A program made the translations under genes and the position numbers. Below the pieces are notes generated by a model. That model was given only the letters and a program-made list of their open reading frames with translations. It was not told the DNA's origin and did not search any database. A stretch of DNA of 61,388 nucleotides from assembly GCA_034439715.1 (NCBI GenBank), contig JAWXAY010000067.1, positions 1 through 61,388 of the forward strand, given 5' to 3'. Position 1 is the stretch's first letter. Each line of letters opens with the position of its first letter. Below are positions 23,414 through 27,221 of the stretch, piece after piece. This DNA comes from Pseudomonadota bacterium. Its GTDB lineage: Bacteria > Bdellovibrionota > Bdellovibrionia > Bdellovibrionales > SG-bin7.

Positions 23414-23621
23414 AAGTGTCTCCTATTTTTTTGGACCCAAACCAAGGGAATCGGCCCATGGATAACACCATGGATATCGGCTTGGCAATGGTCAAATCTC
23501 TTAGGGCGTGGCACGCCTTAAGAGTAACCGTCCAAAAACTAGACAGTCGTAAACTTTTGGGGCGACAGGATTTGTCGCTAGTGGCATTTGACTCTGTCAG
23601 TTTAAAATTAAGGCCTCCTGG

Positions 23622-23638
23622 CAGGCCCACGCCTTGCT
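23622..23638 (+). promoter_or_regulatory. Sigma54-type promoter for a putative sRNA
   Basis: CAGGCCCACGCCTTGCT, GG-N10-GC with TTGCT; predicted start ~23649-23650. Confidence 0.6.
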
Positions 23639-23649
23639 ATATATACAAG

Positions 23650-23727
23650 TAAGTGATTGCGTCACACCTCCCCCCAGGTGGCAATTACCCCTTAAAGCCT
23701 CGCTCCCCCCAGCGAGGCTTTTTTTTT
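23650..23727 (+). ncRNA. Putative small RNA with two poly-C-loop hairpins
   Basis: Hairpin 1 GTGATTGC-gtca-CACCT[CCCCCC]AGGTG-GCAATTAC; hairpin 2 AAAGCCTCGCT[CCCCCC]AGCGAGGCTTT followed by a T run; upstream sigma54 box; no credible + strand CDS ends here. Confidence 0.65.
23694..23727 (+). terminator. Intrinsic terminator
   Basis: Perfect 11-bp stem, C6 loop, T9 tail. Confidence 0.9.
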
Positions 23728-23765: not shown

Positions 23766-23793
23766 TTGAAATAGCCGCGCACATCTGTATATT
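23766..23793 (+). promoter_or_regulatory. Possible sigma70 promoter of the sdh operon
   Basis: TTGAAA-N16-TATATT. Confidence 0.45.
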
Positions 23794-23833: not shown

Positions 23834-24646
23834 ATGGCATCTACCAATATCTCCCTTAAAATGTCAGGACGACCAGCATTTGCAGAAACCTCCCGCCAGG
23901 ATTTTTGGTGGCTCCAATCCGTACTGGTGTTTTTGGGGTTATCGACCTTCGTGGTTTATTCAACCTGGGCCGCATTCCAGGGCGACCACTACTCATTTGG
24001 TTCCTATCTCTCACCCTTCTATTCACCTGAATTATTCGGCAGCTCTCCTCACAGCTGGTTTGGCCCAAAACCTGGTTGGTGGCCCATTTGGCTACCTTTT
24101 TCGCCAGCACTATTAATTTTGTGGGCGCCGGGTGGGTTTCGTTTCACCTGTTATTATTACCGAGGAGCCTATTACAAGGCTTTCTGGGCGGATCCTCCTG
24201 CATGTGCTGTCGGCGAGCCTCGTAAGTCATATTTAGGCGAACGCTCATTTCCTCTCATAATGCAGAATGTGCACCGCTATTTTCTTTACCTTGCTTTAAT
24301 TTTTATCGGACTACTGGCACACGATGTCTGGAAGGCCATGTGGTTTGTTAATTCGGCGACTGGCGCCACACAATTTGGAATTGGCGTGGGTACCCTGATT
24401 TTAGCACTGAATGTTTTTTTATTGTCGAGTTACACCTTGGGCTGCCATTCCCTCAGACATTTAGTCGGCGGAATTTATGATCAGCTAGCGGGCCGACCCA
24501 CACGCCTTAAAATTTATAACTGCGTCACTTGCCTCAATCAAAAGCATATGCTCTTTGCATGGTTGAGTCTTGTTATGGTTGGCTTTTCAGACTTGTATGT
24601 GCGTCTTTGTTCGATGGGTATTTGGCAGGACTGGAGAATTTTCTAG
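23834..24646 (+). CDS. Succinate dehydrogenase membrane anchor, mycobacterial Sdh1 (Rv0249c)-type
   Basis: YLSPFYSP, FRFTCYYYRGAYY, PPACAV, QNVHRYF, YTLGCHSLRH, HMLFAW; directly upstream of sdhA/B. Confidence 0.85.
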   Translation: MASTNISLKMSGRPAFAETSRQDFWWLQSVLVFLGLSTFVVYSTWAAFQGDHYSFGSYLSPFYSPELFGSSPHSWFGPKPGWWPIWLPFSPALLILWAPGGFRFTCYYYRGAYYKAFWADPPACAVGEPRKSYLGERSFPLIMQNVHRYFLYLALIFIGLLAHDVWKAMWFVNSATGATQFGIGVGTLILALNVFLLSSYTLGCHSLRHLVGGIYDQLAGRPTRLKIYNCVTCLNQKHMLFAWLSLVMVGFSDLYVRLCSMGIWQDWRIF

Positions 24647-26469
24647 TGGCACACTCCTACGATTCACATACGCACGATGTTTTAGTAATTGGTGCCGGTG
24701 GCGCTGGTCTTAGAGCCGCTATTGAAGCCTCAGCGAGTGGCCTGTCAGTTGGCCTGGTGTGCAAATCTTTGTTAGGTAAAGCTCACACTGTAATGGCAGA
24801 GGGCGGAGTTGCTGCAGCCATGGGTAATGTGGATGATCGCGACAGTTGGCGCGTACACTTTGCCGATACCATGCGCGGGGGACAATACCTTAATAACTGG
24901 AGTATGGCAGAGTTTCACGCCAAAGAAGCGCCTGAACGCGTGCACGAGCTCGAATCGTGGGGCGCGGTGTTTGATCGCACTCCTGACGGCCGAATTTTGC
25001 AGCGTAACTTCGGCGGTCATCGCTATCCCCGTTTAGCTCACGTTGGCGATCGTACGGGACTTGAAATGATTCGAACTCTTCAAGACCACGGGATTCACCA
25101 AGGCATTGACGTCTACATGGAGCATACTGTTGTGACACTCCTCAAAGATGGCGAAAAAATCGCAGGTGCTTTTGGTTACGACCGTGAGCGCGGGCGCTTT
25201 CGTGTTTTTCGCGCCAAGGCTGTGGTAATGGCGACAGGTGGAATTGGTCGAGCCTTTCGTATCAGCAGCAACAGTTGGGAATACACTGGTGACGGTCACG
25301 GGCTCGCGTACGAAGCAGGTGCGCCCCTAATTGATATGGAATTTGTTCAGTTTCACCCAACGGGCATGGTTTGGCCGCCGAGTGTGCGCGGCATTCTGGT
25401 GACAGAAGGTGTGCGCGGTGAGGGTGGCGTGCTTCGCAACAAAGACGGAAAGCGTTTTATGTTTGATGACATTCCGTCGTTATATAAAAACCAAACTGCG
25501 GATAGTGAAGAAGAGGGTTGGCGTTACACTCAAGGTGATAAAGAGGCACGTCGTCCTCCCGAACTTCTGACCCGCGATCACGTCGCTCGTTGCATAAACC
25601 GCGAGGTAAAAGCGGGGCGCGGTAGTCCGCACGGGGGCGTCTTTTTAGACATTGCTTGGATTAAAGAAAAACTTCCCAAATCCGCTGAGCATATTAAACG
25701 TAAATTGCCGAGCATGTACCACCAATTCAAACAACTTGCCGATCTTGACATCACGCAAGTGCCAATGGAAGTCGGCCCCACCACTCATTATATGATGGGC
25801 GGAATTATGGTCGACGGTGAATCTCAAATGTCGGCTGTACCGGGACTCTTTGCAGCGGGTGAATGCGCCGGGGGTTTGCATGGAGCTAACCGTTTGGGTG
25901 GCAACTCACTTTCTGACCTCTTAGTATTCGGAAAACGCGCTGGTGAATTTGCAGCTAAATATGCCAGAGACGTGCAGCCAGCCAAGGTAGACGACTCACA
26001 GATTGAAGCAGCAGCGAAAAACGCACTTATGCCTTTGGAGCGCGAAGCCAAAACTGGCGACGAAGGCCCATTCAAAATACAACATGAGTTACAAGATAAA
26101 ATGCAAGATTTAGTTGGCATCGTAAGAACTGAATCCGAAATGAAGCAGGCTCTAGTTGAAATCAAAACGCTAAAAGCAAAAGCCGCCACTACTGCAGCAC
26201 GAGGTAACCGCGAGTACAATGGAAGCTGGCACACAGCTTTAGATTTAAATAATTTGCTCACAGTGTCCGAAGCTATTACCCGGGCGGCGATTGAGCGCAA
26301 AGAAAGTCGCGGGGCCCATTTTCGTGAAGACTACCCCAATAAGGACGAAGCATTTGGCCAGTTTAATTTGATTATCAAAAAATCATCTGGCGGCGATATG
26401 CAGGTCGTCCGACAACCACTTAAAGAAATGCGCGCGGACCTTAAACAAATCATTGAGGAGATGAAGTAA
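24646..26469 (+). CDS. sdhA: Succinate dehydrogenase/fumarate reductase flavoprotein subunit (GTG start 24646)
   Basis: GAGGAG, KAHTVMAEGG (covalent FAD His), QFHPT, TEGVRGEGG, HYMMGG, HGANRLGGNSL, ESRGAH; GGAG RBS at 24633. Confidence 0.95.
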   Translation: MAHSYDSHTHDVLVIGAGGAGLRAAIEASASGLSVGLVCKSLLGKAHTVMAEGGVAAAMGNVDDRDSWRVHFADTMRGGQYLNNWSMAEFHAKEAPERVHELESWGAVFDRTPDGRILQRNFGGHRYPRLAHVGDRTGLEMIRTLQDHGIHQGIDVYMEHTVVTLLKDGEKIAGAFGYDRERGRFRVFRAKAVVMATGGIGRAFRISSNSWEYTGDGHGLAYEAGAPLIDMEFVQFHPTGMVWPPSVRGILVTEGVRGEGGVLRNKDGKRFMFDDIPSLYKNQTADSEEEGWRYTQGDKEARRPPELLTRDHVARCINREVKAGRGSPHGGVFLDIAWIKEKLPKSAEHIKRKLPSMYHQFKQLADLDITQVPMEVGPTTHYMMGGIMVDGESQMSAVPGLFAAGECAGGLHGANRLGGNSLSDLLVFGKRAGEFAAKYARDVQPAKVDDSQIEAAAKNALMPLEREAKTGDEGPFKIQHELQDKMQDLVGIVRTESEMKQALVEIKTLKAKAATTAARGNREYNGSWHTALDLNNLLTVSEAITRAAIERKESRGAHFREDYPNKDEAFGQFNLIIKKSSGGDMQVVRQPLKEMRADLKQIIEEMK

Positions 26470-27221
26470 TGTCCAAAACTGCGACCTTTCGAATCTGGCG
26501 GGGCGATAAAAGTGGCGGCAAGCTCGAGGACATGACCACACCTATTAGTGAAGGCATGGTAGTGCTTGATGCCATTCACCAAATTCAGGCCGACCAAGCC
26601 AATGACTTAGCTGTGCGCTGGAATTGCAAGGCAGGTAAATGTGGCTCCTGTTCAGCAGAGATCAACGGCGTGCCAAAGTTAATGTGCATGACCCGCCTCA
26701 ATGAATTGAATCTTGAAAAGCCCGTCACTGTAGAGCCTATGCGAGCTTTTCCTATCGTTCGAGATCTAGTGACAGACGTTTCGTGGAATTACCGGGTAAA
26801 GAAAAAAATTAAAAAGTTCAAGCCGCGTCCACCAGATGCCACTGACGGCTCCTGGCGAATGCAACAAAAAGATATTGATCGTGTTCAAGAATTTCGAAAA
26901 TGCATCGAATGTTTTTTATGTCAGGATGTTTGCCACGTATTGCGGGACCACTCTATGCACGAAGAATTCATCGGCCCAAGATACTTAGTTTACACAGCAG
27001 CGCTTGAAATGCATCCGCTTGATACAGAAAATCGCCTACCTGAACTAAAACAATCCCAGGGTGTGGGCCTTTGCAACATTACTAAATGTTGCACCAAAGT
27101 TTGTCCTGAGAATATTACCATCACCGACAATGCGATCATTCCTCTCAAGGAACGCGTCGTTGACGAATATTATGATCCCATTGCGAAGTTAATCAAAAAA
27201 ATCATCGGGCCACGAATTTAG
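26469..27221 (+). CDS. sdhB: Succinate dehydrogenase iron-sulfur subunit
   Basis: CKAGKCGSC...C, CIECFLCQDVC, CNITKCCTKVCP. Confidence 0.95.
   Translation: MSKTATFRIWRGDKSGGKLEDMTTPISEGMVVLDAIHQIQADQANDLAVRWNCKAGKCGSCSAEINGVPKLMCMTRLNELNLEKPVTVEPMRAFPIVRDLVTDVSWNYRVKKKIKKFKPRPPDATDGSWRMQQKDIDRVQEFRKCIECFLCQDVCHVLRDHSMHEEFIGPRYLVYTAALEMHPLDTENRLPELKQSQGVGLCNITKCCTKVCPENITITDNAIIPLKERVVDEYYDPIAKLIKKIIGPRI

Follow-up and report, generated by a model that had tools for sequence, protein, structure and literature searches.

Locus and predicted fold

In the window, i.e. the whole stretch of 61,388 nucleotides that was analysed, a predicted small RNA of about 79 nt, here termed poly-C RNA, lies between a divergent hypothetical gene on one side and a succinate dehydrogenase-like operon on the other, which starts 105 nt past the RNA on the same strand (Table 1). 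Hairpin 1 begins with an 8-bp stem that includes one G-U pair, followed by a 4-nt bulge, a second stem of 5 bp and the C6 loop, just as an earlier sequence-only reading of this DNA had described it. The 11-bp terminator with the same C6 loop that was part of this description is also present, its hairpin occupying positions 23694-23721 and its T9 run positions 23719-23727. The reading had correctly noticed the twin C loops but overlooked a further single-stranded C tract in the linker; the window RNA carries three poly-C tracts, two in hairpin loops and one between the hairpins. In the predicted fold the six C of either loop are all unpaired, and so are three C of the linker. The minimum free energy of the fold is -31.5 kcal/mol (z -6.49), which was equalled by none of 200 shuffled sequences, and the 10-mer loop motif occurs four times in the 3.26-Mb genome, two of them in the poly-C RNA.

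An upstream plus-strand frame of 78 codons ends at 23652, but in L164, the nearest relative, it is broken by six internal stops. No gene therefore requires the terminator of the poly-C RNA, in agreement with what the sequence alone had suggested. The neighbouring operon (23834-27221) is of the PRK07803/PRK12386 type of succinate dehydrogenase/fumarate reductase and includes an unclassified 270-aa membrane subunit. To our knowledge an operon of this type is unusual for the lineage, and it may have been acquired.

Table 1. Predicted features of the poly-C RNA locus in window coordinates.
Feature	Position	Strand	Remarks
Conserved upstream control region, probable enhancer and AT-rich spacer	23529-23623	+	Copy-to-copy similarity starts here
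Degenerate GTCTCA-N3-TGAGAC palindrome	23530-23544		Four mismatches
GCGACA-N5-TGTCGC inverted repeat, second candidate activator site	23562-23578		Partly kept in L164, L041, L034 and L114
Predicted sigma-54 -24/-12 promoter, GG-N10-GC	23624-23637	+	14.8 bits with a genome-built matrix; non-canonical at -26 and -22
Predicted poly-C sRNA, ~79 nt	23649-23727	+	5′ end inferred from promoter spacing
Hairpin 1, bulged stem, C6 loop at 23670-23675	23653-23688	+	Both-side changes in 13/13 pairs; loop unpaired probability 1.00
Linker C tract	23688-23691	+	C4 in this copy and C4-C9 across the family; the first C is also the closing base of hairpin 1
Intrinsic terminator of 11 bp with U tail and C6 loop (23705-23710)	23694-23727	+	100% of cells paired; both-side change in 9/11 pairs

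Conservation and distribution of the poly-C RNA family

Family seeds were obtained by a DNA search of 61 related genomes, and a first covariance model (R1) was built from four sequences. Further copies were gathered with R1, by a search of 151 genomes of the order and by pattern scans of GTDB, metagenomes and viral contigs, which returned 62, 69 and 1 loci, respectively. Duplicates were left out, as were R1 matches below about 39 bits, most of which proved on inspection to be gene terminators; one 34-bit copy was retained on the grounds of its promoter and fold. In total 23 distinct copies were found, of which 21 were aligned (alignment A5) and two were added later.

Base pairing in A5 was found in 96% of cells, a value favoured by fitting the alignment to the covariance model, yet every copy folds alike by itself. 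Compensatory changes on both sides were detected in 22 of 24 base pairs, none of 500 shuffles scored as high, and slid controls were 38-53% paired. While the stems diverge and covary, nearly all of the 21 copies have loops of C5-C7, flanked by no more than a U. Each aligned copy (21/21) has no fewer than three C tracts of 4 nt or more, although C tracts are favoured by both the search pattern and the model. One copy (L119) has acquired a fourth C-loop hairpin. The covariance model from relatives, one of the checks that the sequence-only reading had named, bears out its proposal of an unannotated sRNA in Bdellovibrionota, which is conserved and covarying.

Every named copy belongs to the Bdellovibrionota. 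This phylum was named for 20 of the 62 GTDB loci, and the 16 best loci by R1 are all among these, from which we infer the lineage to be Bdellovibrionales. Within the order the strict family is patchy, with 8 of 151 genomes positive at 60 bits or more using a second model (R2), and it was absent from an R2 search of 123 genomes of the phylum outside the order; about 30 of several hundred candidates were scored per genome in these scans, so that some copies may have been missed. A second strict-family copy was sought in this genome (G000) and none was found. Look-alikes from other taxa reached 41-52 bits on R2 and were without promoter.

The downstream neighbour lies on the same strand in 12 of the 21 copies, is convergent in 8 and absent in 1. 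No protein family is common to the neighbours of these copies, and a loose similarity to response regulators was seen near three loci only. Similarity between copies starts at 23529 and stops at the terminator, i.e. it extends from about -130 to the terminator. L164 and the window copy are 80% identical over -117..+89 with unrelated flanks, other pairs share blocks of -129..+97, -133..+97 and -135..+88, and even copies that are 92-94% identical differ in their flanks beyond the conserved block. Open reading frames were examined on both strands of the family and none was conserved. Given the unrelated neighbours, the conserved block and the lack of a conserved ORF, the poly-C RNA is a free-standing non-coding gene, with transcription predicted from its sequence features. 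We are nearly certain that the element is a real RNA gene.

Two routes of spread were considered and rejected. Carriage by phages was not supported, since the one viral locus that matched the pattern did so at 28 bits and over the terminator alone. Recent horizontal spread was not favoured by a tree of the cassette, which splits an f10 group from f1+f5 (support 87/83) with 8 of 20 inner branches open. Paralogues of the poly-C RNA pair within genomes in this tree, and together with the split this means that inheritance accompanied by loss and relocation explains the pattern no less well.

Predicted sigma-54 promoter and upstream control region

The sequence-only reading had recognized a sigma-54 box with a transcription start near 23650. 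With GG at 23624-25 and GC at 23636-37, spaced by 10 nt, the start falls on G23649, and the spacing is kept in 16 of 21 copies when anchored on TTGC. The most constant promoter columns are A/T-11 (21 of 21), T-9 and A-8 (20 each), G-24 (19) and G-25 (16); weak columns are T-26 (8/21) and A-22 (3/21), and the GG spacing is broken in five copies. The window copy has A at -26 and C at -22, so that its -24 box is non-canonical. Its score is in the top 1e-4 of intergenic positions, though the lower quartile of the seed sites is higher (16.7 bits). The genome encodes rpoN plus 15 sigma-54 activators, and the motif TGGCAC-N5-TTGC occurs 16 times between genes and 5 times in coding DNA, a 29-fold intergenic enrichment. 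Control of the poly-C RNA by sigma-54 is therefore predicted with good confidence.

Relatives carry a strong palindromic site about 130 nt upstream that is missing from the window copy. The palindrome GTCTCA-N3-TGAGAC was found with at most two mismatches in 10 of 23 copies, 128-193 nt upstream (region searched -210..-90; shuffled rate 0.003). Across G000, 80 of its 166 sites are intergenic, even though intergenic DNA makes up just 10%. It is enriched before sigma-28-type boxes (OR 7.4) and before genes of FQNC-type lipoproteins (OR 19), without clear enrichment before sigma-54 genes (OR 1.6, p=0.25), and lies upstream of flgM in 20 of 30 genomes. It is a global motif, being also found before flagellin, fliA-like, hpf-like and pilin-like genes (names read from the sequences). 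A half-site of the palindrome is present at four places in the B. bacteriovorus attack-phase promoter table that forms part of the supplement of PMC3627812. Since the strong site is lost in the window copy, which retains the degenerate remnant, the motif gives no more than a hint that the poly-C RNA might be linked to a motility or attack programme, and this is the only hint towards the life-cycle role that the sequence-only reading had proposed. The GCGACA-N5-TGTCGC repeat is a further candidate activator site.

At 23498-23524, where relatives have the strong activator site, lies a near-perfect palindrome of 27 bp, with arms of 13 bp around a single central base pair. It includes a TGGCACG box that lacks a matching -12 element, and has one weak look-alike elsewhere in the genome.

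Comparison with known C-loop RNAs

No Rfam family reaches its cut-off for the poly-C RNA. The best match is to the cuckoo RNAs (ar14, RF02344) of Alphaproteobacteria with 35.1 bits (E 0.0003, cut-off 58.8), and 21.9 bits were obtained on one of 20 member loci. Cuckoo RNAs are described as repeating one loop motif over two to four hairpins with variable stems, and are similar to the poly-C RNA in this respect. Their loop, however, is defined by CCUCCUCCC in the description given in PMC4615179, whereas the loops found here are pure C, and an RpoH-type promoter has been reported for the cuckoo RNA RSs0680.

A likeness in architecture exists to 6C (B11, RF01066) of Actinobacteria, an RNA of about 75 nt with two hairpins whose loops each hold some six C in a row, which is reported to pair with G-rich ribosome binding sites (RBSs) without a chaperone (PMC6486639). 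The poly-C RNA scores 21.7 bits on the 6C model (cut-off 47), and the 20 member loci gave no match. The two RNAs further differ in that 6C is described as SigA/SigB-driven in Corynebacterium (PMC5014011), in that the second hairpin of the poly-C RNA is the terminator and its linker adds a third tract, and in phylum, as the 16 best-scoring named records of the poly-C RNA are all Bdellovibrionota. In RepG of Helicobacter pylori a C/U-rich terminator loop is reported to pair with an mRNA leader at a homopolymeric run of G (PMC8295292). RepG has one seed compared to three here, and its target is phase-variable; sequences were compared through the Rfam scans alone. With exposed C-rich loops on conserved stems the poly-C RNA resembles the class of base-pairing sRNAs with C-rich loops, and it differs from CsrB/RsmZ-type sponges, since its loops carry no GGA. 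A literature search, with most subscription journals outside its scope, recovered no description of the RNA, also when short sequence strings were used. C-loop sRNAs are thus a known class, to which the poly-C RNA adds a new family.

G-run ribosome binding sites as candidate targets

Gene starts were taken from a crude purpose-made gene caller. Of the 3026 genes called, 128 (4%) have GGGGG within the RBS window, compared to 7 in a control window. The 16S tail of this genome is standard. Median energies of the loop duplex, computed without loop strain, were -12.6 kcal/mol for G5 sites and -6.4 kcal/mol for GGAGG sites, and the 16S tail gave -9.9 kcal/mol on G5. Because the loops are pure poly-C, G runs are preferred over canonical GGAGG sites. 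The sequence-only reading had regarded the loops as anti-Shine-Dalgarno seeds, which holds for G-run RBSs and thus for 4% of the genes, but not for GGAGG sites with their weaker pairing. The G-rich RBSs that it had listed within the window, before 40286, 54690 and 27958, all exist, but the one before 40286 is a G4 plus AGG and thus an ordinary Shine-Dalgarno sequence.

Behind sigma-54 promoters 17 of 90 genes have a G5 RBS, compared to 109 of 2879 other genes (OR 5.9). Counting operon leaders the numbers are 17/80 for sigma-54 and 61/1264 for the rest, and a third sigma-54 set gave 14/66, resulting in a five- to sevenfold enrichment over the three sets. GGAGG is likewise enriched behind sigma-54 promoters (11/66, OR 2.5), so that strong RBSs alone may account for part of the G5 signal. 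Judging from predicted N-termini, many of the sigma-54 genes with a G5 RBS look secreted, and Pfam searches of 12 of them identified Kelch, CBS, solute-binding, YcaO and chitin-binding domains or proteins and two DUF proteins.

Comparisons between genomes did not link these sites to the presence of the RNA. The ratio of G5 to GGAGG behind sigma-54 promoters was 34:44 in a family with poly-C RNAs and 22:43 in a family without (p=0.30), it was 6:11 in three other carriers, and the genome-wide excess of G5-ATG does not follow the RNA class across families. Two individual targets were rejected. flgM, considered by analogy to the Campylobacter RNA CJnc230 as reported in PMC11187230, has a G5 RBS in none of 30 other genomes, the site being private to G000. 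pilA appeared carrier-specific at first look (3/3), but had the site in 2 of 8 further carriers, and in 7 of 30 genomes in the comparison that was also used for flgM.

Neither hfq nor proQ was found in this genome, which is 95.7% complete, while CsrA and a KhpA/B-type KH protein are encoded. We propose that an enhancer-binding activator would switch on transcription of the stand-alone poly-C RNA by sigma-54 polymerase. The ~79-nt transcript would fold into two variable stems, shown by covariation, that hold out the three poly-C tracts. Independently of Hfq and ProQ, these tracts may pair with stretches of at least five G at the RBSs of a subset of mRNAs. By analogy to 6C and RepG this pairing would block translation or hasten decay. 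The poly-C RNA might then act as a non-coding brake inside its own sigma-54 regulon, with many secreted proteins and lipoproteins as possible targets. Duplex chemistry and the precedents reported for 6C (PMC6486639) and RepG (PMC8295292) make base-pairing a fitting mechanism, with the target being a candidate only. Pairing of the poly-C tracts to G-run mRNA sites is, on this analogy, reasonably probable. The best explanation overall, towards which we lean somewhat more cautiously, is a chaperone-independent, trans-acting sigma-54 sRNA that silences G-run Shine-Dalgarno sites; that sigma-54 export genes are its main targets is a tentative and rather doubtful extension.

The repeated loops on variable stems might also be read as binding sites of a protein-sequestering RNA that titrates a poly-C-binding protein, most likely one with a KH domain. 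CsrB-type RNAs titrate CsrA in such a manner via GGA loops. The multivalent design, including the additional hairpin of L119, is what would be expected of a sponge, the KH protein of this genome is at hand as a partner, and a conserved mRNA target was looked for among flgM and pilA and not found. CsrA, however, is not the partner, since the hallmark GGA of CsrB/RsmZ-type RNAs is missing from the loops. We know of no poly-C sponge in bacteria, and the poly-C-loop RNAs so far studied act by base-pairing according to the reports cited here (PMC6486639, PMC8295292). We regard sequestration as fairly improbable.

A short sibling and other C-rich RNAs

A pattern that combines a sigma-54 box with two C5 runs downstream of it was matched in 128 of 201 genomes of the order, against 12 control matches. 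Among the matches listed, most represent an RNA of about 60 nt. Its TGGCAC promoter is of textbook type, its short leader contains a C6 tract, and the loop of its terminator is rich in C. This short sibling adjoins an amidase gene and a gene for a coiled-coil secreted protein (homologues L221-L255, L261 and L262). In g31, the largest genus of the sample, the pattern was matched by 27 of 27 genomes, and the copy of G000 (L251; C60:9369-9479, minus strand) is without leader tract. No Rfam match was obtained for 12 loci. Short and long forms begin alike, and the long form looks as though a hairpin had been added to the short one just behind its first bases. On the other hand, the two have unrelated terminator stems, and the short form scores 22 bits on R2. 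Common ancestry of the two forms is conceivable, if somewhat more doubtful than not.

The promoters of the short sibling bear on the question of which holoenzyme reads the long form. A sigma-70-family holoenzyme, alone or alongside sigma-54, might use an overlapping -10 box, as first suggested by the TA after TTGC. The T-9 and A-8 of such a box are found in nearly all copies of the poly-C RNA, most copies have TGGC at -30..-27 as a possible -35 element, and five lack the GG spacing. In the short sibling, however, the same TA comes after textbook TGGCAC promoters (T in 32 of 33, A in 31 of 33), where the last T of a -10 box is found in just 2 of 33, and TA is common after sigma-54 boxes throughout the phylum. 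We therefore downgraded this reading, and consider transcription of a genuine sRNA in this way to be quite unlikely.

For the sigma-54 poly-C RNAs as a whole, we can put forward a speculative and on balance unlikely picture, in which the Bdellovibrionales would possess an order-wide, as yet undescribed layer of such RNAs, composed of the ~60-nt core beside the amidase gene and accessory forms with added hairpins. This layer would read G-run RBSs as an address label and halt the export of lipoproteins and secreted proteins of the sigma-54 regulon at one predatory stage, under a master regulator that would also bind upstream of flgM and sigma-28 promoters.

Several other C-rich elements were encountered. 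Outside the order, families f23 and f24 have further sigma-54 poly-C RNAs. Candidates with a sigma-54 box or C-rich hairpins that fit neither form were seen at L045, L067, L109, L117 and L270 and in genomes G175, G218, G244, G241 and G274, some of them in tandem pairs 2-2.5 kb apart. A three-hairpin element with C-rich loops lies by a murA-like gene in f12 (L048, L057, L081), syntenic in three genomes and with no sigma-54 box seen. Arrays of two or three C-loop hairpins without promoter (L110, L126, L144, L092, L116, L152, L188, L202, L210) were detected in Ilumatobacteraceae, Cetobacterium and GC-rich metagenome contigs, and probably have independent origins. Loci L051, L052, L056, L070, L076 and L079 are gene terminators, mostly of f10, with frequent UUCCCCC loops after a C-rich linker, and may give rise to 3′-UTR-derived sRNAs. 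A type IV pilin, used as query, was matched 32 times in one 2.6-Mb genome (G037).

A possible cis-acting function and the comparison with Pxr

The position of the element upstream of the succinate dehydrogenase-like operon on the same strand, together with the C-loop terminators that end ordinary genes in related genomes, could point to a 5′ leader or attenuator of this operon or to an ordinary terminator. The operon, however, has its own sigma-70-like promoter at 23766-23793, the downstream gene is a different one in every copy and convergent in 8 of 21, there is no conserved leader peptide, and promoter and RNA are conserved as a single block. We therefore judge a cis-acting role to be very improbable.

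The sequence-only reading had further suggested analogy or homology to Pxr of Myxococcus xanthus (RF01812, cut-off 80 bits), an RNA that blocks development. For both RNAs a sigma-54 promoter and an enhancer are predicted, and in both the loop of a bulged first stem holds a run of C (PMC5684412, PMC5568312), some Cystobacter paralogues are described as having just two stem-loops (PMC5568312), and the host of Pxr is likewise reported to be without Hfq, with Pxr contacts near Shine-Dalgarno sites (bioRxiv 10.1101/2025.09.11.675593). Nevertheless, a distant orthologue of Pxr gating a life-cycle switch is the least credible reading and extremely improbable, since RF01812 found no match at E<=10 in G000, the window region or 20 member loci, Pxr is a processed RNA of 108 nt with three stem-loops rather than 79 nt with two and is fixed directly downstream of pxrR/nla19, beside pxrR/pxrK, whereas the poly-C RNA has no fixed neighbour and no conserved response regulator adjoins its 21 copies, and Pxr is described as originating within Cystobacterineae (PMC5684412), with the strict poly-C family not found in the 123 genomes of the phylum outside the order. 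Most likely the poly-C RNA works like 6C, RepG and possibly Pxr, but belongs to none of them.

Significance

RNA regulation in predatory bacteria is an almost unstudied field. A survey reported eight attack-phase sRNAs of 98-655 nt without assigning functions (PMC3627812). The poly-C RNA adds a family that is backed by covariation and for which promoter, seed and a class of candidate targets are defined, and one more lineage that combines poly-C loops, sigma-54 control and absence of Hfq. The short sibling, whose pattern occurs in all sampled genomes of g31, should bring the question within reach of cultured strains.
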